Of a stretch of 64,000 nt of DNA, positions 6,907 to 60,787 are shown one piece after another. Both the position numbers and the translations under genes were made by a program. The DNA comes from a virus. The notes beneath the pieces were generated by a model, which saw nothing but the letters and a program-made list of their open reading frames with translations, was not told the origin of the DNA and made no database searches. Location: positions 96,001 to 160,000 of IMG/VR virus record IMGVR_UViG_3300035070_002905. One strand, given 5' to 3'. The first letter of the stretch is position 1, and each line of letters starts with the position of its first letter.

Positions 6907-7467
6907 ATGGCTACACATGAAATAACCTATGATACTGCAGACAATGCCGCTCGAGCCCTCAACACTATGAAGTGGTATAACCGAGACGGTAAGTTCTCTC
7001 GGAAGGGTACTACTGCAATGTTCGACATGCCCGACTCGCGTCCACTGCACGATCACGTAAGTGGTCATCCTCATCATGCTCTACAGTTCTGCGAGTTCGT
7101 CTCCCGATGTCGGATTCCAGAACTAGAGCCAACTATCCTATGCGACCCTGGCATTGCAGCACGATATGCTAAGAGTATCCTGAAGTCTACCTGGCCGGAA
7201 GCAGAGGATAAGATCTTCTCTAGCATCCACGCTATTACCTACTACCTAGAGGTACCGGGCGTTGATATAGATAGATGTAAGGCTGCAGTCATAGCAGAGG
7301 TAAACAGAGGCAGTGAGAGTAGCTACTGGAATGCGTACAACTACTGGGCGATCATCAGTCGTATCAAACAGGCCTGGCCTGAGGTTGAACCTGTACTGAA
7401 GCTGAACCCGTCTATCTGGGCGCAGTACCAAAGGTTATTACCTACATGGAATTCAACAAATTCCTAA
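6907..7467 (+). CDS. hypothetical helical-repeat protein (two WPExE repeats)
   Basis: AAGGAGG RBS; ILKSTWPEAE and IKQAWPEVE repeats. Confidence 0.7.
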   Translation: MATHEITYDTADNAARALNTMKWYNRDGKFSRKGTTAMFDMPDSRPLHDHVSGHPHHALQFCEFVSRCRIPELEPTILCDPGIAARYAKSILKSTWPEAEDKIFSSIHAITYYLEVPGVDIDRCKAAVIAEVNRGSESSYWNAYNYWAIISRIKQAWPEVEPVLKLNPSIWAQYQRLLPTWNSTNS

Positions 7468-7506
7468 AACCTGCTATAAATAAAGTGTAAGGAGTTATAC
7501 ACTCCT
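7452..7506 (+). promoter_or_regulatory. putative phage promoter (TTCAACA-N14-GCTATAA plus downstream hairpin)
   Basis: TTCAACA 7452-7458, GCTATAAATAA from 7473, hairpin AGGAGT-TATAC-ACTCCT 7490-7506; motif recurs six times in the window. Confidence 0.7.
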
Positions 7507-7513
7507 GCGGAAA

Positions 7514-7569
7514 TTCAACATTCTAGTTATTTCCGTTATAATTAAGTTGTAAGGTAAACTACACCTTAC
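7514..7569 (+). promoter_or_regulatory. putative phage promoter, tandem second copy
   Basis: TTCAACA 7514-7520, GTTATAATTAA from 7535, hairpin GTAAGGT-AAACTAC-ACCTTAC 7549-7569. Confidence 0.7.
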
Positions 7570-28847: not shown

Positions 28848-28887
28848 TTCAATATTTTAGGGTATTGGGTTATAAGAGAAGTATAGG
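28848..28887 (+). promoter_or_regulatory. putative phage promoter driving the (+) island (degenerate copy without hairpin)
   Basis: TTCAATA 28848-28854, N14, GTTATAAG from 28869; overlaps a TAAAATAT element on the opposite strand. Confidence 0.55.
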
Positions 28888-28911
28888 ACAATCATTTTAC
28901 CGGAGAACGAA

Positions 28912-29031
28912 ATGAACTCATTCATCGCACGACTAAAGAATCTTAACCTGCCGCAATTCCTGTTAGTAGTCTACCTGGCTGCTACGACAGTTATTGGGTC
29001 AGTATTTGCAATCGGCACCTTCAAGGAGTAA
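28912..29031 (+). CDS. small membrane protein (39 aa, not in the ORF track)
   Basis: GGAG RBS; MNSFIARLKNLNLPQFLLVVYLAATTVIGSVFAIGTFKE. Confidence 0.55.
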   Translation: MNSFIARLKNLNLPQFLLVVYLAATTVIGSVFAIGTFKE

Positions 29032-49925: not shown

Positions 49926-51755
49926 TTAATATCTGCCGCCTTTGCCATCGCCGAAGTTTCCGCCCATGACGTATGCTGCAATTGGATCAGTAGATGAGAT
50001 TTCAGATTCGCGGCCCATGACTACAGATTCTTTCAGGTTACGTACCTGATTACCAGTAGCAAGACGAGAGATCCAGTTTTCATCTAGATGTTTAACTGAG
50101 TTTAGACCAGGTACGAGAGGCTTAACGGATAGATTAGTCTTACTGACTTTAACCTTATCAACGCCTTTAAGCTCTAGCTCGTCTATGTGGTTTTGATCTA
50201 GCACAGTACCAGGAGTCATATATAAGACACCGTGTGATAGCATGCGACCTAGCGCAGCACTCAACGGTAGCTCTTCGACGTCCTCTTGAAGTTCTTTTTG
50301 TAGAACGTTAACGTTAACCTTCTGGCCTGGCAGGTATCCAGTATCTCCTGGATTCTCTACTAGGACATGCTTAACCATGTTCTTAGCGATCAGATCATAG
50401 TGACGCGTGTCGAGTTTATTACCTGCACCCTCGTAGATTTCACGTAGGGTATTAGTAATGTGCTTACGACCGGCGCCGGTTCCGCGTAGTTCTACTAGTT
50501 CACGAGGGTTAATCGTACCGGTAGATAGAGCGTCGCCTTGCTTGACCTGTTGACCCATCTTAACTAGAACTTCCTGCTCACGAGGAACGAAGTGTTCTTG
50601 GCCGTTGATATAGATCTTGTGTGCATTCAGAGAGGTACGCAGAATCTCATCTACCTTACCGTTAAGGCTAGCGATGGTCGCCTTCTCTTTGAATGTACTA
50701 GGGTTAGCTAGTAGGTTACTTACTTGATCGAATGGGCTGGCACGTTTACCGGCTTTCGAGTCATGCTTCGTAGATAGGATCATCTGGGTCAATACCTCAG
50801 ATGCCGATTGAGCTGCCAGTACGCCTACGTTCTCGCCTACATCTGGAACCTTAGCACGTGAATCCATGCCGTAACACTTCTGGCATACTCCGTCAGGAGC
50901 CTCACAGGTCAGCGTAGAGCGGACGGTGATGTTAGTCTTACCAGAGCTCTTAAGTTCCTTCCAGTACTCCTCGTCGATTAGATGATTAGTACCCGCCTCA
51001 TAGCGGTGCATGATCTTACCCTTGTCGCTAACCTTAGCAGAGTCACCGTTCTTAGTCCCGCAGTCGGGCTCGGTGATTACTTCATGGTATACGTTAGGAG
51101 TGATCTGCTTAAACATCGCACCAGGTTTACTAGTAGATAGCTGTGCAGATACCGTGTTACCACGACCCCAATATGACATCGCTAGTTGCTCTGCAGGACT
51201 AAGGCCCTCAGCGTACGAGCTAGTAATGGCTACAGGGATTGGCGTGCCGTCGATTCTCTTAGAGATCAGCGGTGAGCTTGTCGCCTGTTGTAATTGGTTC
51301 GGGTTACCACGAGCCTTGGTCTTAGCCATGATCGCCGCGGTAGAGTTACGGTCTACTAGGTAGTTAAGGTTTTGATCAACCATCTTAGGCTGATACTTGT
51401 TTGTCATGTCGTTGATCATATCGTTCTTCTGCTGCTGACTTAAGTCGCCGCGAAGGTTGATCTGATCGATCTTACCTTTGAACTCTTGAAGCATCGTCTT
51501 GCGATCTTCCGAGTCATTGTAGTAATCTGCTAGTGGAGTAGAATAGCCATTAGCTGTAGCCTGACCGAAGAACTCGTTACTAAGATTAGTAATAGTATCT
51601 CCAGCTTCGCTGCCGCCGTAGGTAATAACCTTATGCATAAGGTCGTTTACTCCGCCTTTATCCAAGTGTCGAGTCACATCGTAATGCTCTTTGACGCCAC
51701 TAGGAAGCATCTTTTTTATTTTCAGCGCTCCCGCTGCGAAGACTGGTTCCGTCAC
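49926..51755 (-). CDS. phage RNA polymerase beta' subunit, C-terminal half
   Basis: KARGN, bridge helix EGLSPAE...GR...T...G, EPDCGT, RSTLTC...GVCQKCYG, trigger loop GENVGVLAAQSASEVLTQMILSTKH, DTRHYDLI. Confidence 0.92.
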   Translation of the reverse strand: MTEPVFAAGALKIKKMLPSGVKEHYDVTRHLDKGGVNDLMHKVITYGGSEAGDTITNLSNEFFGQATANGYSTPLADYYNDSEDRKTMLQEFKGKIDQINLRGDLSQQQKNDMINDMTNKYQPKMVDQNLNYLVDRNSTAAIMAKTKARGNPNQLQQATSSPLISKRIDGTPIPVAITSSYAEGLSPAEQLAMSYWGRGNTVSAQLSTSKPGAMFKQITPNVYHEVITEPDCGTKNGDSAKVSDKGKIMHRYEAGTNHLIDEEYWKELKSSGKTNITVRSTLTCEAPDGVCQKCYGMDSRAKVPDVGENVGVLAAQSASEVLTQMILSTKHDSKAGKRASPFDQVSNLLANPSTFKEKATIASLNGKVDEILRTSLNAHKIYINGQEHFVPREQEVLVKMGQQVKQGDALSTGTINPRELVELRGTGAGRKHITNTLREIYEGAGNKLDTRHYDLIAKNMVKHVLVENPGDTGYLPGQKVNVNVLQKELQEDVEELPLSAALGRMLSHGVLYMTPGTVLDQNHIDELELKGVDKVKVSKTNLSVKPLVPGLNSVKHLDENWISRLATGNQVRNLKESVVMGRESEISSTDPIAAYVMGGNFGDGKGGRY

Positions 51756-52234: not shown

Positions 52235-52373
52235 ATCTACGTGCTGTCTGTGCCTTATCTACCGGAGTCTCACGCTCTGGTATAATAGGACTCTTTGACT
52301 TGGCCTTACCGATATTATTAGCGGCATTAGTAGAGGCGATAGCCCTCGCCTCCTCTACTAGTGGTCTCTTCAC
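52233..52373 (-). CDS. possible 46-aa protein (not in the ORF track)
   Basis: GTGA overlap with the RNAP stop; frame exactly fills the gap to the terminator. Confidence 0.35.
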   Translation of the reverse strand: MKRPLVEEARAIASTNAANNIGKAKSKSPIIPERETPVDKAQTARR

Positions 52374-55300
52374 TTCTTACGGATTCGGATAGGAGTGTTC
52401 TCTGAGATCTGTCCAGATTCCAGTGCAGCCATAGCCGCCTGTTCACTGTCGAAACTCATAGTCTCCTGCTCCATGTCCGGACTAGTCAAGTAAGATGATC
52501 CTAAGATCGCCTCGTGACCCGGTGCGTACATCGGAGAGCCATGCCCCATACGAGCATCGTGTAGATGGTTCTCAGGGAGTAGCTTATCCTTAGCCTCTTG
52601 AATTGCTTCAGGAGTCACCGGAGCGAACATCGACATTGCATCACCATCGTAATCGGCCGCGAAGCCAGGTAGATGGAGGATGTTCATACCGATTGTCTTA
52701 CCGCTTGTCGGTACCGCTTTAAGCGCTAGGATATTCGTCTTCATCAATGTAGGTGCACGGTTGAGAATCACCGGTACTTCCTGACACATCTTGTTGAACG
52801 AAGCGCCTGCCGCCTGGTTGCGAGTCTCGTAAGCCTCTTTAGCCGATGCTGCATCGTAACCCTTCTGAGCCAGGTCACGCTTGATGTGCATCTCGTACAT
52901 AGTCCATAGCTGCTCTTTAGGGATCTTAGCCTCGTTGAAGCCTACATCCGGAGCTGCGTAGATCGTACCACGACCAGAGATGTCCTGCTTCTTACTCAGA
53001 AGCTTGCTCTGGAAGAGACCGGTCTTAGGACCGCCTTCACCACCAATCTGCTTAAGCAAACCTTTAAGGCCCTGCTGCTTATGCTTATAGTTAGCCGGAT
53101 CGCCTGCCGCCATGATAGCCTTAAGACCCTGATAGGTCTCAGAACGAACATCCTGCAGTGGCTGATACTCAGGTGTAACGATGTCTTTCAACTCGCCAAC
53201 CTTCTCGTTACTGATGAACGCATCTTTATACAGAGAGTTAACGTCTGCTACCGAAGCACGTCCACCCGTTACCGATACTGGACGCATCACTGGTGGAATG
53301 ATCGGAATGTTACGTAGCATTACCGCTTTAGAGGGATCGTCGTAACCCTGCTTGTTAAGACCGTGTAGGTACTTCAACTTCTTAATCGCCTGGTCTTTCT
53401 TACTACGTGAAGTAATAGAGTGTACCTGACCTTTAAGATAGTCTACCTCGGCAGTCGTATCGATGTCCGCTAGCATTTGACTGAATGCCTCGCCGCCTAC
53501 GATCATCTCACCGTTCTCAGCCTGCTTAGTGAAGTCAGGGATAGAGCTAACGTTTACCTGACGAACAACCTCTTCGCTATCAGAATCGATCAAGTCGAAT
53601 ATACCAGTAGCCTTGCGCTTAACGCCAAACTTACCAGAGATCAGACCGTCGTATTCCTTCTGCTTAAGATCGAGCATTGAACGTACAGGATCCTCGAAGA
53701 CTGGGTTAACTGTAGGCTCTGCCAGCTTCATATGAGACCACTTCTGACCGTCAGGTCCACCGGTGATACTCGTATCGAATAGGCCGCCCTTCTCAGGACG
53801 TGCATCCTTACCGTAAACCATCTTAGCATTCTGGATCTCTCCGTTAGAACGTTTAAGGATTGACTCATCGGTCAGAGGAGAAAGACTAAGCTTACCGTTA
53901 CGGTGACTCACGTCGATGCCTGAACCTACTAGGTAATCGAAGAACTTGTTCGTAGCGAATGTAGTCTTAGGCTTCGGAAGCGGTAGACCTCGTACGTACT
54001 TGTCCCAGTATTCATTCTGATCTGTTAGCGCGCCACCTTCAGATTTAATGGTACCGATTTCCTTCAGGTTCTTACGAGCGTTCGAGCCTAGTAAGCCTAG
54101 GAACTCCATGTAACCTACTGATTTAGCACCTTCTTCACCACCTTTAGTTGGCTGACCGACGTTATCGTAGCCGCCTACCGAACGAGCCGAGTAGTTAGCG
54201 TCAACCGTCTTGTCTAGCTTAAGGATGTACTGTGGTCCAGCTAGTACGTTAGCACCGATAGTCTTACCGGTCTGCGGATCGTAGATCTCCTCGGTATCGC
54301 TCAGGCCATGCTTGGCAAGGTCATCACGAATCTTCGCAAGGTTATCCTTCTCACCGTAGTTCTGTACCATGTACGGCTGTCCGGTCTTCTTAGCGATCTT
54401 ACTAGCTGCAGTCTCAAGGACCTGGCCTAGGTTGATACGCGAAGTTACCGACGCAGGGTTAAGTAGAAGGTCTACTGCTTTACCAGTCTCCTTACTATGT
54501 GGCATCTCGTGATCGTCTAGGATCAGCGATACAACACCCTTGTTGCCGTGCAGTCCAGTAATCTTATCACCCATCTCAAGGTTCTTCTCAGAACGAATGA
54601 TTACGCGGATATTCTTACCAGAGTGGTCTACATCTACAATCTCTCCAGCCTCGTGGTGATCCCATACAATCGAAGCATCACGATACGGACTTACCAGAGT
54701 CTTATGCAGACGTCCCAGTACTTTATCCGTATCAGACTGTTGGCGCTCCTCCATGATAGGCCAGATTAGATCGCCATGACTTAGCTTACGGCCTTTAGTA
54801 GGCTTGCCGTCCATTGCGAATCCATTAAGCTGTTCAGGCTTGTACTTACGACCGAAGTTCGCACGGAACTTAGCGGCATCTAGTACTGTTTCTTTACCGG
54901 TCTGGTAGTCAAACTTATAGCAGTGGTTACTGGTCATAGACTCGGCAGCCGACTTACTGATGATGATACCATCCTCGTGGTTAAAGCCTTTGTACGGGAT
55001 GTATGCTGCGTGCAGGTTCTTACCTAGAGCAAGACTTCCGTCTTTAGTATAGTTATTATCTGCTACTACATCGCCAGGTTTAACTCGATCGCCGATCTGT
55101 AGATGACTCTCAGAGTCATCGTGGAAGCCCTTCATGTTAAACGGCATGTTATCTACCAGCTTAATCGTATGGTCTTCCTTAGTACCATCCTCGCGGATTG
55201 TAATCGACTTAGGAGTCTTACCGACTACCGTGCCTTCTACTGGGCTCTGACTTGAGAATACTCCAGCCATACGAGTGCCGTAAGAAGTACCAGTATGATC

Positions 55301-56932
55301 GACCGTCTGTACTAGCGGCTGCTCACGTTCCTTCAGGCTTAGAGACTGAGGGATTGCCTTACCTGCCATCGTTAGACGACCGGGGTGGTTACTGTTAAAG
55401 AACGGCACAAGGTTAGTCGTTACCGTGTACATATCAGAACCTGCTGGAATCCAGTAGTCTACCTGTGCACGAGGCACCTCGGCGAACTTACCGTTACGCT
55501 GGGCCTGTACTGTAGGAGCATCAGACTTAAGGCCGTCCGAGAAGCCTACCGTAGAGTTCATCATCTCGTTAGACGATAGGTAGTGTTCGACACCCTTACT
55601 ATCTAGTACACGAGCGTACATGTTACCCTCTTCATCACGACGTGAAGTCATGGTGAAACGCTGGTCGATACCAGCCATGCCAGATTCCGGTGTACGTGAT
55701 GGATCAAGGATACCTAGATGCGAAGGATCGACGTTACGAGCCTCGTCTGGAACACCTTGAGCCGATGCGATACCGCCGTAGCCCTGACCTAGGATTGTAG
55801 CCTTACCAACGTTCTCAATGCTCTCTACCGGGTTTGTTTCCGTCGGTGTTGATGCCAGTGAGCTGTTGATGATGAAATTAGTGTATACCTTGTTAAAAGG
55901 CTTGGCTCCAAGTACTCCTCGAATCTTAGGGTTATTCTTGTCCACGCGGCCAAGAGCACGCTGTACATTCTTGAGGGTACCTGTAACATTCGCATTACCT
56001 TTACTGAAGTGGCTGCCGATGAAGTCCGGAAGGTTCTGCACCTTCTTGAACTGCAGGCTATCACGGTTATCTTCCTGACGTTCACCACGGCTGATATCAA
56101 CCAGGTTCTTACAGGCACGCATGATGGTCTCTGCCTCTACATGGCCGAACGACTTACCTAGGGTAGTCTCGGTAGTAGATGCATCAAGGCTAGAGCTCTC
56201 TAAGGCCTCGCGAAGGATACGAGCCTTCTCGTCGACCGGTAGACTCTTATCCTGCAGACGCTTGTTAACCATCTTACCGTATAGGTTAGTGATTACCTTG
56301 TTCTCCATACCCTTAGATGCTTTGATGTTAACTGTAAGCAGGTCCTGAGGAATGAAGCGCGACATGTCTGCAAGGTTCATCTTGAAGACTTCAGTCAGTA
56401 CTGGGATTAGCGGTACGCCGGCAGACTTAGCGCCACCTGCACGTACGTTGAAGACCTCTGTTTCAGGGTCTAGAACGATACTAAAATTCGCACCCGAGCC
56501 GGTGTTAAAGGAGGATTCCAGTTCGTCGTTATCGCGAGAGCGAGTATATACTCCAGGCTTAAGCACAATGAGGTTAGCGACATTGTAGTTGTTCCCTCTA
56601 TAGATTGCAGTATGCTTACCCGTCATAGAGTAAGTGTCTGCTAGTTGAAAGTTCTTCACGGTATCGACGAGATCGCCGGTCTTCTTATCGTACATCTTAA
56701 CGGTACCCTTAACCGGGTACGTTAGAGATTTACCTTTAAGAATTGCCTGCTTCTCATCCTCGTGGTCGAAGTGCTTCTTGTCTGCGTAGACATCTTCCAC
56801 TTCGATTCGGTAATTGTTATCCTCAATAGGAAACGTTGAAGAAATCCCTTTGATCATCGCGTTGTCAGTCTTCTCATTGATATCATGAGGGGATGTAAAC
56901 AGCGGGATTAGTTCATCAGCCTTCTTTGGCAT
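52370..56932 (-). CDS. phage multisubunit RNA polymerase: beta subunit fused to the N-terminal half of beta' (catalytic DxDGD)
   Basis: beta motifs GILDPSRTPESG, LALGKN...GFNHEDGIIIS, GDKITGLHGNKGVVS, LLNPASVTSRINLGQVLE, YILKL...ARS; beta' motifs PEKGGLFD, IPIIPPVMRP, LLSKKQDISGRGTI, LNRAPTL, FAADYDGDAM. Confidence 0.95.
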   Translation of the reverse strand: MPKKADELIPLFTSPHDINEKTDNAMIKGISSTFPIEDNNYRIEVEDVYADKKHFDHEDEKQAILKGKSLTYPVKGTVKMYDKKTGDLVDTVKNFQLADTYSMTGKHTAIYRGNNYNVANLIVLKPGVYTRSRDNDELESSFNTGSGANFSIVLDPETEVFNVRAGGAKSAGVPLIPVLTEVFKMNLADMSRFIPQDLLTVNIKASKGMENKVITNLYGKMVNKRLQDKSLPVDEKARILREALESSSLDASTTETTLGKSFGHVEAETIMRACKNLVDISRGERQEDNRDSLQFKKVQNLPDFIGSHFSKGNANVTGTLKNVQRALGRVDKNNPKIRGVLGAKPFNKVYTNFIINSSLASTPTETNPVESIENVGKATILGQGYGGIASAQGVPDEARNVDPSHLGILDPSRTPESGMAGIDQRFTMTSRRDEEGNMYARVLDSKGVEHYLSSNEMMNSTVGFSDGLKSDAPTVQAQRNGKFAEVPRAQVDYWIPAGSDMYTVTTNLVPFFNSNHPGRLTMAGKAIPQSLSLKEREQPLVQTVDHTGTSYGTRMAGVFSSQSPVEGTVVGKTPKSITIREDGTKEDHTIKLVDNMPFNMKGFHDDSESHLQIGDRVKPGDVVADNNYTKDGSLALGKNLHAAYIPYKGFNHEDGIIISKSAAESMTSNHCYKFDYQTGKETVLDAAKFRANFGRKYKPEQLNGFAMDGKPTKGRKLSHGDLIWPIMEERQQSDTDKVLGRLHKTLVSPYRDASIVWDHHEAGEIVDVDHSGKNIRVIIRSEKNLEMGDKITGLHGNKGVVSLILDDHEMPHSKETGKAVDLLLNPASVTSRINLGQVLETAASKIAKKTGQPYMVQNYGEKDNLAKIRDDLAKHGLSDTEEIYDPQTGKTIGANVLAGPQYILKLDKTVDANYSARSVGGYDNVGQPTKGGEEGAKSVGYMEFLGLLGSNARKNLKEIGTIKSEGGALTDQNEYWDKYVRGLPLPKPKTTFATNKFFDYLVGSGIDVSHRNGKLSLSPLTDESILKRSNGEIQNAKMVYGKDARPEKGGLFDTSITGGPDGQKWSHMKLAEPTVNPVFEDPVRSMLDLKQKEYDGLISGKFGVKRKATGIFDLIDSDSEEVVRQVNVSSIPDFTKQAENGEMIVGGEAFSQMLADIDTTAEVDYLKGQVHSITSRSKKDQAIKKLKYLHGLNKQGYDDPSKAVMLRNIPIIPPVMRPVSVTGGRASVADVNSLYKDAFISNEKVGELKDIVTPEYQPLQDVRSETYQGLKAIMAAGDPANYKHKQQGLKGLLKQIGGEGGPKTGLFQSKLLSKKQDISGRGTIYAAPDVGFNEAKIPKEQLWTMYEMHIKRDLAQKGYDAASAKEAYETRNQAAGASFNKMCQEVPVILNRAPTLMKTNILALKAVPTSGKTIGMNILHLPGFAADYDGDAMSMFAPVTPEAIQEAKDKLLPENHLHDARMGHGSPMYAPGHEAILGSSYLTSPDMEQETMSFDSEQAAMAALESGQISENTPIRIRKK

Positions 56933-57218: not shown

Positions 57219-59028
57219 TACGTGACTCCTCAAAGATTCTCTGTTGTGCCGTACGTGAGCGACGGCGTGTTGGTTTTGGTTTCGGTGCTACCGATGCGGC
57301 CTTCTGCATACCGGCCTGAGGATCTTCCTCTACCTCGTCTGCTCCGCCCATGTATTGCTGGATGATAGTCATAACGTGGTCGTACTTCGCCTCGTCTTCG
57401 GCCTGTAGGGCCATAACCATTTCCATACGTTTCTGTTCGTCAGGCTCTTGAAGAATCGCCTGCGCTTTAGTCATGACATCTTGACGGTAATCGTTATAGC
57501 CGGACTCGTCCTCGCCATCAGATACCTCGTCTTTGTGAGCCATGTAGACTGCCTGTTCCATCTTGTACTTCATGCGTACTGATTCTTCAGCCTTATCGAT
57601 CTGCTCTTGGACAATCTTCTCGCTCTCCTTCTCGGGATCGATGTCGCATGTCTCGAGCAGGGTCTTGCCGCTGATTAGGCTAGCCTGATGTAGCTGTAGG
57701 TACATGTTCTTCAGTGCATCGTTATCGGTCAACTGGTATGGCACCAGGCTAACATCGGCTTCTTCTAGGCCTAGGTAGTTAGCGATCTGATCGACGATCC
57801 AAGTAAGATAGCGTTTAATCTTACGGTTGTACTGGTTCATGTTGTTCTCTAGTAGACGTAGGCCTACCGTAGAGCTCGTCCAGTTAGTCGTACCGCTCAA
57901 TAGCTCACGGCTCACGCCCATTGCCATTAGCAGCTGCTCTTCAGCGAATTGCAGTTCCTGTGTAACCAGTAGAGATTTACCCTGACCGCCTACGTAAGCT
58001 GTACCGATCGGCACTGGACTTAGTAGTACATGGTTAGGATCCTGCTTGAATCGCTGCAGGCTTGACTTCACGTTAGTCGTGAAGTTATTCATACTCATCA
58101 TCGATACCGGGTCGCCGGCAGAAGAACTCTGTTGCGGGTACAATACGCGCATCGGGTTCATATGCTCCAGGGCAATCGCCTCGTTAGCCTTCTTCAGACA
58201 CTGCATGTAGAATACAGTCGAGTAGTGAGATAGTAGCGGCGGAACACCGAATCCCTCGATGAAGTCACCCATTGTAAGGCTCTTCATGTGGTGGATGGCG
58301 CCAGGCGCAAACTTAAATTCTTTCTGTGTGCGTACAGCCTCTACGAATTCCCATGGTACAGTCGTCAGGAAGTGCGGGTCACCGATTAGGATCTTACGCT
58401 TGACGTCGCCAGGGATGTTGTAGAAGTACTCTGTATCGCCGGTAATAGGGTTATCATTGATGGAGATGTTATCCGGCTTCCACTTAATGATATTGATACG
58501 GTTTACATCTTTACTCTTCGTATCGATGCGCTTGTATATTACCTTCTGTGAACATCCAGGACATTCTCCACTGAACTGAAACTTCTTCCAGATCGCGTAC
58601 TTGCCGTCCAGCGCCTTGCGGCTGTTGTAGCTAGTCTTACACGAAGGGCACTCTAGCATACGATCGATAGGAAAGTAGATAGAGGTGAAGCTGTTTCCGT
58701 AAGCATGGTAATCGAAGCCACCGTCTGACATCTTCTCGATTAGCTTAACCGATTCGAATATCTCTTCGTACTTCTCACGGAGTTGTTTCTTCGGAGAACT
58801 CACGGTTACTTCAGTGATCGGATAGGTCGCTAGCTTACGTAGTACCTCAGCACTAGTAGGAGACTTAACGATGATGAATCGCGTCCACTTAAGAAGGTCG
58901 TGAAAACTACGCGGGAGGAACTGACTGGATACGTCGTACGCAGGGTTCGCGTAAGTACCTAAGTCATATCGTCCGTAGTAGCCACCAGGTGTAATTGTTG
59001 GGCTAGTCCCAATCTGACCAATAGCCAT
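57205..59028 (-). CDS. putative portal protein with Zn-ribbon insertion
   Basis: 607 aa, first gene of the head module; DYHAYGNSF, IHHMK...GFGVPPL, GVSRELLSG; CPSC/CPGC insert. Confidence 0.7.
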   Translation of the reverse strand: MAIGQIGTSPTITPGGYYGRYDLGTYANPAYDVSSQFLPRSFHDLLKWTRFIIVKSPTSAEVLRKLATYPITEVTVSSPKKQLREKYEEIFESVKLIEKMSDGGFDYHAYGNSFTSIYFPIDRMLECPSCKTSYNSRKALDGKYAIWKKFQFSGECPGCSQKVIYKRIDTKSKDVNRINIIKWKPDNISINDNPITGDTEYFYNIPGDVKRKILIGDPHFLTTVPWEFVEAVRTQKEFKFAPGAIHHMKSLTMGDFIEGFGVPPLLSHYSTVFYMQCLKKANEAIALEHMNPMRVLYPQQSSSAGDPVSMMSMNNFTTNVKSSLQRFKQDPNHVLLSPVPIGTAYVGGQGKSLLVTQELQFAEEQLLMAMGVSRELLSGTTNWTSSTVGLRLLENNMNQYNRKIKRYLTWIVDQIANYLGLEEADVSLVPYQLTDNDALKNMYLQLHQASLISGKTLLETCDIDPEKESEKIVQEQIDKAEESVRMKYKMEQAVYMAHKDEVSDGEDESGYNDYRQDVMTKAQAILQEPDEQKRMEMVMALQAEDEAKYDHVMTIIQQYMGGADEVEEDPQAGMQKAASVAPKPKPTRRRSRTAQQRIFEESRNGSV

Positions 59029-59087
59029 GTAAGTTCCTCTTTGATTTGTTATGATGATTTTAGCTCGTAATAGTATTTTACGATTTG

Positions 59088-59143
59088 TTCAACAATAGCC
59101 TGCCGATTTGTTATAAGTAATACGTAGGGATATACACTCTACG
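59088..59143 (+). promoter_or_regulatory. putative phage promoter with hairpin
   Basis: TTCAACA 59088-59094, N15, GTTATAAGTAA from 59110, CGTAGGG-ATATACA-CTCTACG. Confidence 0.7.
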
Positions 59144-59145
59144 CT

Positions 59146-59200
59146 TTAAATATATAGTGTTCATCTTGTTATAAGTAAGATGTACAGGAGAATACTCTCC
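59146..59200 (+). promoter_or_regulatory. putative phage promoter with hairpin, tandem copy
   Basis: TTAAATA, N15, GTTATAAGTAA from 59168, GGAGA-ATAC-TCTCC. Confidence 0.7.
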
Positions 59201-59229
59201 GTCCTAACAAAAATTATTGAGGTTACACC

Positions 59230-59487
59230 ATGCGCATTATCGATAACAACAACGCTCGTCTTGACATCACTGCTCCAACTGGTACTATCGCTGAGAACGG
59301 CGTAGTAGAAATCGCTGCTCCAAAACGTACAATCACTGGCCTGCTTAGCGCCGCTGCTCTTTCAGTAGTAAGCAAGCTAGATCTTAAAGTTACACTTAAC
59401 GGTATGGTCGGCAAGGCTCATAAAGTTGAGTTCAGCAGCGACGTATCTGAAGCAGATATCCGCACAGCACTAAACCTCGTCAACTAG
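59230..59487 (+). CDS. hypothetical early protein
   Basis: GAGGT RBS; first gene after the tandem promoters. Confidence 0.75.
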   Translation: MRIIDNNNARLDITAPTGTIAENGVVEIAAPKRTITGLLSAAALSVVSKLDLKVTLNGMVGKAHKVEFSSDVSEADIRTALNLVN

Positions 59488-59488
59488 C

Positions 59489-59722
59489 ATGATGACGGCT
59501 AAGGTGGCTGAAGCTGTACGTGCACTGGCCGGCACGACACACAAGTACAATACTTTCCGTAAGACTTGCCGCCAGGTAGGTCTTAACGGGGAGCACATTA
59601 GTAACTCCGAACTGCGTGAGACTTTTGAGATGTGCAAGCGAAAGCAACCGCGCAAACGTATCGCTAACGTTAACCGATACGATATTAACAATTATGGTTC
59701 AAGAGGAATGATCAAATGCTAA
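59489..59722 (+). CDS. small basic hypothetical protein
   Basis: 77 aa, adjacent to the upstream gene. Confidence 0.55.
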   Translation: MMTAKVAEAVRALAGTTHKYNTFRKTCRQVGLNGEHISNSELRETFEMCKRKQPRKRIANVNRYDINNYGSRGMIKC

Positions 59723-59844
59723 GAGCTACTTACCTCGTCTGCATTACAGTAATATGTCTCCTACCAGACGATGTCCAAGGGCTCTTAGCCGTATCTACAT
59801 CGCTAGGTATGCTGTACCAGTATAAACGTTCAACATTCGCATAA
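59716..59844 (+). CDS. small hydrophobic protein (42 aa, not in the ORF track)
   Basis: GAGGA upstream; MLRATYLVCITVICLLPDDVQGLLAVSTSLGMLYQYKRSTFA. Confidence 0.4.
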   Translation: MLRATYLVCITVICLLPDDVQGLLAVSTSLGMLYQYKRSTFA

Positions 59845-59883
59845 CTTTATGCTATAAGTAATGTGTACCGAGGATTACTCCTC
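59829..59883 (+). promoter_or_regulatory. putative phage promoter with hairpin
   Basis: TTCAACA 59829-59835, N15, GCTATAAGTAA from 59851, GAGGA-TTAC-TCCTC. Confidence 0.7.
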
Positions 59884-59940
59884 ACATTAAACCTATGGGT
59901 TGCCGGTCCCTCCACCGGTATCTTAAAGAAGGAAAGACTC

Positions 59941-60198
59941 ATGTCTCAGAAAACAGCAATGACTAACGAACAACTTACTGTAGCAATCCAACAGCTTCAG
60001 GAAGGTCAGCAACAAATCGCTGATGCCCTTACTCAGGGCGCGCCGGCTACTCGTAAAGTAGCAAGCTTCTTCGGAAAGCACAAGACGAAAATCCTTGCAG
60101 CCATTGGTGTGGTTGCAGCGGGCGGTCTAGGCTATGCCGGTTACAATCAGGTTTCTAACAAATCTGAAACTCCTCTTCTTGAGGATGTAGCCGAGTAG
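59941..60198 (+). CDS. small membrane-anchored protein
   Basis: ATG 59941 with AAGGA RBS (ORF track start 59863 lies inside the promoter); ILAAIGVVAAGGLGY helix; followed by a terminator-like hairpin at 60214-60236. Confidence 0.7.
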   Translation: MSQKTAMTNEQLTVAIQQLQEGQQQIADALTQGAPATRKVASFFGKHKTKILAAIGVVAAGGLGYAGYNQVSNKSETPLLEDVAE

Positions 60199-60262
60199 AG
60201 TCTGGGCTGCCCTGGGCCTCCGGGCCCTTTTTCTTTCGCTATACCTTTATTGGAGTACTACC

Positions 60263-60787
60263 ATGGAATTAGCATTAAAACAAGCACGTCGCTTAGACAT
60301 CGCTCTACGTAACTTGACTATCGAAGGTCAGACTGCGGAAGTTCGTAAGTACGACCGCCAGACTATCGTCGGTGATCTTGATGCAGGTGGTGAAAGCCTG
60401 TCCCGTAACATCCTAGATGTAATGATCTTAAACGATATCCGTTATCAGATCCGTCATCTAATCAACTACGCTAACATGGAGACCGGCGTAAGCGAACTTC
60501 TTAACGAACGTGACCGTCTGACTCGTGACCTAGAGATCTACAGCAAGCTAGGCCGCGTCGATAGCACGGAAGATCAGCTTCGCTTCGTAGGCTCTAACTT
60601 CGATACTAATACCGTGCGCCTAAGCGTTGTACGCCAGGAGCATCGTACTAATGTCGACAAGGAAGTGGCTACCGCTAAGCACCGTCTAGAAGAAATCTCT
60701 GCAGAGCTTAACCAGCTTAACGAGACGGCAGTAATCGAGCTAGACGATGATGATGTAGCTATGTTAAAACACTACAACTATCTATAG
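60263..60787 (+). CDS. coiled-coil hypothetical protein
   Basis: GGAG RBS; 174 aa. Confidence 0.75.
   Translation: MELALKQARRLDIALRNLTIEGQTAEVRKYDRQTIVGDLDAGGESLSRNILDVMILNDIRYQIRHLINYANMETGVSELLNERDRLTRDLEIYSKLGRVDSTEDQLRFVGSNFDTNTVRLSVVRQEHRTNVDKEVATAKHRLEEISAELNQLNETAVIELDDDDVAMLKHYNYL

Follow-up and report, generated by a model that had tools for sequence, protein, structure and literature searches.

A probable sigma-type promoter family with start-proximal hairpins in a phage related to Salmonella phage Arash

Promoters of the sigma70 extended -10 kind follow the form TTGACA N17 TGnTATAAT, in which the hexamer T at -7 is near-invariant. The single-subunit virion polymerase of phage N4 uses a DNA hairpin upstream of the start as its recognition element, and the 5'-terminal stem-loops of the Escherichia coli ompA and T7 gene 10 leaders stabilise their mRNAs; the T7 gene 10 leader has a conserved start, GGGAGA, that is paired by a downstream complement. 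Among repeated promoter/stem-loop units, the nearest described are the PeSL cassettes of T4-type phages, which pair a host sigma70-type promoter with a tested terminator, read by its authors as halting transcription begun upstream (PMC2839356, PMC4122927). Jumbo phages such as phiKZ and AR9 carry virion polymerases whose early promoters have an AT-rich conserved block of ~10 nt near -10 (PMC7598289). The promoter family described here was found in a window of 64,000 nucleotides, positions 96001-160000 of one 172,110-bp phage genome of 48.6% G+C (IMG/VR record IMGVR_UViG_3300035070_002905). Many of its copies run into a small hairpin close to the predicted start. Coordinates refer to the window unless they are given as genome positions.

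The reading favoured here, whose truth as a whole we hold to be evenly balanced, is that Arash-like phages possess lineage-specific early or middle promoters of sigma type that carry a stabilising RNA stem-loop at the 5' end. Such a promoter would have two boxes, a -35 TCAA(C/T)A and, across a 16-17-bp spacer, TGnTATAAG, followed by an AT-rich TAA discriminator and T(-1) G(+1) TA. Transcription would initiate at the G of GTA, and the TATAAG class would be read by an injected, packaged holoenzyme composed of a phage sigma factor and a multisubunit polymerase. Where the leader exceeds ~40 nt, its first 20-25 nt would fold into a 5-7-bp stem-loop lying 0-5 nt from the 5' end, which would shield the long-leader message against 5'-end-dependent decay in the manner of the ompA and T7 gene 10 stem-loops.

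The motif family is real and reaches beyond the window. An earlier note on this DNA had listed six copies (7452, 7514, 28848, 59088, 59146 and 59829), and all are present at those coordinates; five of the six go on as NTAANNNGTA and four have TG before the hexamer, as it had also stated. The pattern TTCAAYA N13-16 GYTATAA has five matches in the window, where shuffles predict 0.02; in the one remaining copy (59146), the -35 box reads TTTAAATA. Genome-wide, a motif search found 15 copies, 14 on the plus strand and one on the minus strand before the sigma gene, with the overall pattern TCAA(C/T)A, 13-14 nt, TG(T/C)TATAA(G/A/T), TAAnnT, GTA. Alignment on the hexamer places a -35-like T(C/A)AA(C/T)A 13-14 nt ahead of the TG position in every copy (15/15). 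The spacer is always 16-17 bp, TG occurs in 11/15 and a conserved G lies 7 nt past the hexamer. After TATAA(G/A/T) come the TAA discriminator, a T at -1 and GTA at +1 to +3, and the counts fit the promoter form G-N-TATAAG/GGTATAAG.

The first genes that can be named behind these promoters encode a gp2.5-like single-stranded DNA-binding protein (SSB), a phosphatase, a protease, a poly-Ubl (ubiquitin-like) protein and the sigma factor. No virion-type match was found among the first genes tested behind the 15 copies, and most of the remaining genes have no PHROG match. That a family with sigma-type promoter geometry heads plus-strand gene clusters is borne out, the blocks being non-virion, and the Ubl operon does belong to them as proposed. 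The copies very probably form a genuine promoter class. From their layout we infer early timing and a start at the G of GTA, the latter predicted rather than mapped.

The closest cultured relatives of this phage are Vibrio phages D69, D181 and D148 (portal 68% identity), followed by Salmonella phage Arash (49%). Megablast against GenBank phages gave no match, and a search of IMG/VR through portal, polymerase and Ubl-operon proteins returned just a 39-kb contig, a pair of short pieces and a handful of metagenome contigs. The promoter box is found across the clade. D69 has 12 copies, every one on the strand that carries its long blocks of non-virion genes. In Arash, TATAAK-N6-GTA has 17 matches on one strand and none on the opposite strand or for a reversed-pattern control, the box there being TGGTATAAG-N6-GTAA. 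This lineage (Arash; Vibrio phages D69, D181 and D148; marine relatives) packages a bacterial-type polymerase plus a sigma70-family factor, and the literature searched contains no description of its promoters; searches for phage promoters with TATAAG and for a virion polymerase with a sigma factor gave nothing on it.

The copies share the general geometry of the sigma70 family (two boxes, an optional TG, a predicted start 6-8 nt past the -10 box) and depart from the housekeeping hallmarks, namely TATAAT with its final T and TTGACA with its TTG. G occupies hexamer position 6 (-7) in 10/15 copies of this genome, 11/12 in D69 and 16/16 in Arash. None of the 15 copies has G at the third -35 position, so the TTG core of TTGACA is missing, and all have A-11. 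A sigma70 consensus scan that demands T at position 6 did not list these sites.

The genome also encodes candidates for the reader. A bacterial-type RNA polymerase is specified as two chains (52370-56932 and 49926-51755, minus strand) inside the portal operon, and the phage sigma factor (Table 1) aligns with SigA from region 2 through region 4.2. It keeps TYAGWW..Q and has the region 3.0 helix, with Gln replacing His455 and Glu458. Across the four phages compared, regions 2.4 and 3.0 are invariant, and region 4.2 reads TRQYLKDLK in three marine phages and NQAYVKRSL in Arash. Arash likewise departs in its -35 box, a weaker CCAATA, so that the -35 box and sigma region 4.2 appear to change in step. 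Mass spectrometry of purified Arash virions found beta, beta' and the sigma factor (PMC10585845).

It is the finding of the lineage's sigma in Arash virions alongside the phage RNA polymerase that favours the phage holoenzyme. Reading of the TATAAG class by phage sigma and phage multisubunit polymerase, in preference to host sigma70, is on this evidence reasonably probable. The earlier note had proposed an early promoter read by the phage polymerase or a modified host enzyme; the phage enzyme is the plausible part of that proposal, given the conserved departures from sigma70 together with the lineage's own sigma and virion RNA polymerase. The portal operon with its polymerase genes is headed by a second motif, TAAAATA (59080-59073, minus strand). 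Genome-wide, this class (TAAAATA N1-3 GTA) starts with GTA, like the TATAAG class, and the common start hints at one catalytic core reading both.

Host sigma70 could instead read the TATAAG copies as extended -10 early promoters of a T4-like kind, with the phage sigma and polymerase serving the TAAAATA class. This account is possible, if well short of probable. It would suit the -35-like box, the 16-17-bp spacer, the TG, the TATAA core and the purine start 7 nt on, as well as the TATAAT copy upstream of the sigma gene itself, and T4-type phages have repeated early promoter cassettes of host type (PMC2839356, PMC4122927). It would not explain why the near-invariant T-7 is replaced by G in 37/43 copies over three phages of differing hosts, why every copy lacks the -35 TTG core, or why a consensus scan demanding T at position 6 misses the sites. 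The joint variation of the -35 box and sigma region 4.2 also speaks for the phage factor, and the packaging of a sigma with the polymerase in Arash is sensible only if it is the injected enzyme that recognises the first promoters.

Hairpins were assessed by folding +1 to +30, with z-scores against dinucleotide shuffles. In the window, five copies have a hairpin with a minimum free energy (MFE) of -6.0 to -7.9 kcal/mol (z -2.0 to -3.7); the copy at 28848, with a 29-nt leader and its ATG at 28912, has none (MFE -0.7). Across the genome a 5'-proximal stem-loop is found in 9/15 copies (-5.6 to -11.5 kcal/mol, z -1.7 to -3.7) versus ~20% of random 30-nt windows (P about 8e-4). Nine of the ten leaders of at least 40 nt have one and the short leaders none, their ribosome site lying directly past the start, where a hairpin would be. 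D69 has 6-8 hairpins in 12 copies and Arash, with short leaders, 2 in 16, and over the three genomes hairpin presence tracks the long leader (Fisher P 1e-4). In the late promoter class (TAAAATA N1-3 GTA), just 2/12 have a 5' hairpin. A search of IMG/VR with the core TGYTATAAGTAANNTGTA gave 31 single matches without a -35 box, which are chance matches and were kept as a negative control only; a hairpin follows 1/31. Counted from the predicted start, 0-3 unpaired nucleotides precede the stem in 6/9 copies and 5 in 3/9. Within 58900-60100, Rfam had no match up to E = 1, and there were no terminator-like sites. Among RNA runs, none was listed as containing 58900-60300.

The earlier note had described a 5-7-bp stem whose sequence differs from copy to copy. 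That is true of the five hairpin copies in the window and fails genome-wide, where several cassettes are paralogous and the copies are therefore not all independent. The copies at genome position 6809 and at 59829 are paralogues with an identical stem, GAGGA/TCCTC, and copy 59146 differs from its paralogue 59829 by two fully compensated pair changes. Orthologous promoters retain a hairpin with a changed stem. At the SSB promoter the stems are unrelated (GUAGGG/CUCUAC here, AAAGG/CCUUU in D69, GUGAGC/GCUCGC in contig G001), and at the Ubl promoter the partner of the 5' GUAAGG is CCUUAC in this genome and CCUUGC in D69. A 93%-identical relative has an unchanged stem at the promoter P2 (copy 59146), amid flanks with five substitutions and one deletion; at the neighbouring P1 (copy 59088), four 3'-arm substitutions rebuild the stem as GGAUAUA-UAC-UAUAUUC.

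These comparisons bear on the idea that the hairpins and their TAC arose passively, as a single ancestral promoter-leader cassette was copied around the genome. Copying has clearly occurred, since 6809, 59829 and 59146 are paralogues and the relative holds an exact 51-nt P1 copy at a second site. As a full explanation it is extremely doubtful: the spacers are unrelated, pair changes are compensated, orthologous promoters in three lineages have unrelated stems, and the relative has rebuilt one stem through four substitutions.

Among the stems that contain G-U pairs, the sense strand is 2.5-7 kcal/mol more stable than the antisense in nine and less stable in one. G-U pairs become C-A mismatches on the opposite strand, so this bias points to an RNA structure and not to a cruciform, an operator or an N4-type hairpin. 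Both tandem pairs of predicted starts (7487/7549 and 59124/59182) have a hairpin at each start, which suggests a function tied to the 5' end. Selection of the hairpin as RNA is likely on these comparisons. Of the two options raised earlier, the 5' RNA structure is favoured by the sense-strand G-U bias and by a hairpin position downstream of the predicted start; the analogy with N4, in which the hairpin would be a DNA recognition element, finds no support, that same position lying past both the -10 box and the predicted start.

A second conserved feature lies in the loop. Counted from the G of GYTATAA, TAC occupies positions 26-28 in four window copies and 24-26 in copy 59088, as first reported. 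Genome-wide, TAC falls within +10 to +16 in 8/15 copies versus 11.6% of GTA-starting background windows (P about 1e-4). It is always unpaired, on the 3' side of the loop, and all eight TAC copies bear hairpins (8/9 hairpin copies versus 0/6 without; Fisher P 0.009 across three genomes). In an ungapped alignment TAC is fixed at +12 to +14 and the stems shift register around it. In the relative's rebuilt P1, a C-to-T change moves TAC from +10 to +12, into the triloop. D69 has TAC in the orthologous portal-side and SSB loops and within one stem; its other hairpins, with loops such as TTAG, ATAAA and TATTCCG, lack it, as do both Arash hairpins. The loop UAC could equally well make contact with a protein or an RNA, or belong to the conserved initially transcribed DNA.

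The constant distance of TAC from the start, held while the stems shift register, is what a DNA-level element would predict, whether an operator for a dimeric repressor, an N4-type extruded hairpin, a downstream promoter element or a sigma-dependent pause. TATACA and TATACT resemble a -10 box, and the region past the start matters for the phiKZ non-virion polymerase (PMC7598289). We consider such an element improbable as the explanation of the hairpins. Their stem sequences and registers are too varied for one DNA-binding protein, their G-U pairs favour the sense strand, and they lie downstream of the recognition region, not inside it. No match to a single-subunit N4/T7-type polymerase (PF00940) was found in the genome, a search in which the control genomes also gave none, so that it had no positive control. 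The specific candidate, (A/T)TAC at +11 to +14 as a -10-like pause signal, with TATAC in three copies, is equally improbable: the key A at the second -10-like position is present in just 5/8 copies, and the short-leader copies function without TAC, if they are functional at all.

The UAC-loop hairpin could alternatively be an RNA tag for a phage protein on the emerging transcript, marking the long-leader early transcripts as one regulon. Such a protein might act as lambda N does on boxB, in antitermination or processivity, or might regulate translation or decay. A tag of this kind would be expected to keep an unpaired triplet while its stem varies, as here; UAC is tied to the hairpin copies (8/9 versus 0/6), is retained in the loop after the relative's P1 stem was rebuilt, and recurs in the orthologous D69 loops at the portal-side and SSB promoters. 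Most D69 loops and both Arash hairpins nevertheless lack it, TAC-loop hairpins are not enriched off promoters, no candidate binding protein was identified, and TAC is fixed to the start and not to the stem, a pattern that suits an element at the DNA level or shared ancestry just as well. The tag is for these reasons unlikely. More unlikely still is the stronger form of the idea, in which hairpin and fixed UAC make up a dedicated RNA signal read by a phage factor or by the polymerase as the transcript exits. If true, the signal would decide readthrough, decay protection or timing of the long-leader early transcripts, and would add a new element of promoter-proximal RNA control to a transcription system so far unstudied.

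Other candidates for the hairpin were set aside. A single covariance model for all hairpins was not built, the stems sitting in differing registers around the fixed TAC. Masking of the Shine-Dalgarno sequence by the 3' arm found no support, hairpins showing no significant association with a G-rich +3 to +12 (P 0.33; 0.39 for long leaders). D69 annotates a gene like the RNase E-activating Srd, whose homologue is absent in this genome. As a free-standing RNA element the hairpin is unconvincing: TAC-loop hairpins are common by chance genome-wide, and the off-promoter GGAG/CTCC types appear to be intragenic (coding). Pairing of the 5' GUA with the loop UAC in a pseudoknot was rejected by reasoning, being sterically implausible in 4-nt loops and superfluous where the stem already begins at +1.

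To return to the favoured reading, a close parallel is offered by the T7 gene 10 leader, in which a conserved start sequence is paired by a complement further downstream. By this analogy a stabilising function of the hairpin is a tentative suggestion, a little short of even. Several points weigh against the favoured reading. The tie of hairpins to long leaders has a trivial component, a short leader being too small for a stem-loop, and Arash leaders of 30-41 nt lack one. The five unpaired 5' nucleotides of three hairpins are reportedly the limit for 5'-end protection in the ompA work. A pure stabiliser requires no conserved loop, which leaves UAC unaccounted for, and the paralogous cassettes cut the independent TAC observations to ~4-5, not 8. 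On the promoter side, the copies retain A-11, TG and a workable spacer, T or A stands at -7 in 5/15, and host sigma70 could fit the sequence taken alone.

Table 1. Promoters, hairpins and sigma genes (window coordinates, except sigma genes, which are given by contig)
Feature	Position	Strand	Elements
Ubl-P1	7452..7506	+	-35 TTCAACA 7452-7458; TGCTATAAA 7472-7480; predicted +1 G 7487
Ubl-P1 hairpin	7490-7506	+	AGGAGT-TATAC-ACTCCT; TAC 7498-7500; MFE -7.9, z -2.9
Ubl-P2, 62 nt past Ubl-P1	7514..7569	+	-35 TTCAACA 7514-7520; CGTTATAAT 7534-7542; predicted +1 G 7549
Ubl-P2 hairpin	7549-7569	+	GTAAGGT-AAACTAC-ACCTTAC; TAC 7560-7562; MFE -7.5; first gene from 7639
Hairpin-less promoter	28848..28914	+	-35 TTCAATA 28848-28854; GGTTATAAG 28868-28876; predicted +1 A 28883
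Other promoter class (TAAAATAC)	59073..59080	-	faces portal and RNA polymerase operon; 8 nt off P1 -35 box
P1, divergent from portal gene	59088..59143	+	-35 TTCAACA 59088-59094; TGTTATAAG 59109-59117; predicted +1 G 59124
P1 hairpin	59123-59143	+	CGTAGGG-ATATACA-CTCTACG, one G-U pair; TAC 59133-59135; MFE -6.0, z -3.7
P2 (copy 59146), 58 nt past P1	59145..59200	+	-35 TTTAAATA 59145-59152; TGTTATAAG 59167-59175; predicted +1 G 59182
P2 hairpin	59187-59200	+	GGAGA-ATAC-TCTCC; MFE -6.5; gene from 59230
Promoter 59829	59829..59883	+	-35 TTCAACA 59829-59835; TGCTATAAG 59850-59858; predicted +1 G 59865
Promoter 59829 hairpin	59870-59883	+	GAGGA-TTAC-TCCTC; MFE -6.4, z -3.1; gene from 59941
Sigma70-family factor, this genome	L031:2682-3452	-	256 aa
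Sigma genes compared in four phages	L031:2682-3452; L038:1501-2265; L006:33187-33963; L037:1501-2271	-; -; -; +	

Further structures lie in or near the leaders. Behind the promoter at 59829, a second leader hairpin (59901-59920, plus strand; gene from 59941), CCGGT-CCCTCC-ACCGG, has a loop complementary to a Shine-Dalgarno sequence and, lying ~20 nt ahead of the ribosome site of that gene, may act in translational control. At genome 42363-42475 (L034:2363-2475), a terminator, AAAGGCTC-CTACGG-GGGCCTTT followed by T7 (seven T residues), stands directly ahead of a TGTTATAAG promoter in a PeSL-like arrangement. This promoter, at genome 42420, is the only copy with a terminator directly upstream, and its leader has no hairpin and holds a 7-codon mini-open reading frame (ATG TAT ATT ATT TGT CGT AAT TAA). 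In Arash (L015, ~68694, minus strand) and D69 (62488, minus strand), a promoter runs straight into a strong hairpin and T-run, the Arash hairpin being GGGGAC-ACAATC-GTCCCC followed by TATTTTTT. These two sites look like a promoter-proximal terminator or a ~30-nt RNA. The 51 nt of P1 at 59088-59138 recur exactly in the 93%-identical relative (Logan contigs X1/X2), ~8 kb off the orthologous site, where P1 itself has diverged; the second copy suggests cassette mobility similar to that of PeSLs.

The sharp consensus offers an experimental handle on whether the injected holoenzyme recognises TCAACA/TGnTATAAG. It also raises the questions of how a sigma factor tolerates G where sigma70 needs a flipped-out T, and of whether the SSB and sigma genes are timed together with the Ubl tagging operon. 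The hairpins are natural stem variants around a fixed UAC and are suited to comparing 5'-end protection with protein recognition. Should the promoter merely be of host type with a stabilising hairpin, this would be ordinary phage regulation, of value mainly for annotation.

Like PeSL cassettes, the promoters described here head non-essential gene blocks, and cassette copies seem to move. In contrast to PeSLs, which combine a terminating stem-loop with a host-type promoter, the stem-loop here lies within the transcript at +1 to +22 and has no U-run. The early promoters of phiKZ and AR9 likewise have an AT-rich block centred on -10, ahead of early operons, and a packaged multisubunit polymerase; they have neither a sigma70-family factor nor a -35 box, and this lineage has both. 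The lambda nut site, with boxB and N, is also a small promoter-proximal RNA hairpin of early transcripts, with a conserved loop and a freer stem, from which the present hairpins differ in having no boxA partner or N-like protein, a loop that is not GNRA-like and a fixed 5'-end position. N4 hairpin promoters share a 5-7-bp stem and small loop close to an early start, whereas the hairpin here, at +1 to +22, follows a sigma-type promoter and has the behaviour of an RNA structure.

The ompA and T7 gene 10 stem-loops are short, lie at most a few nucleotides off the 5' end and draw in part on a conserved initial transcript, with a stem whose sequence is free, a layout that the present hairpins would share at their predicted starts; the fixed unpaired UAC of the loop and the five unpaired nucleotides in three copies set the present hairpins apart. 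The promoter itself is a variant of the known sigma70-family kind for which the literature searched holds no description. With sigma70 extended -10 promoters it shares two boxes 16-17 bp apart, a TG one base ahead, a TATAA core with A-11 and a purine start 7 nt past the hexamer. It differs in its mostly final G, in a TCAA(C/T)A box without TTG, in the conserved T(-1)GTA(+1 to +3) and in its likely reader, a 256-aa phage sigma factor on the phage polymerase.

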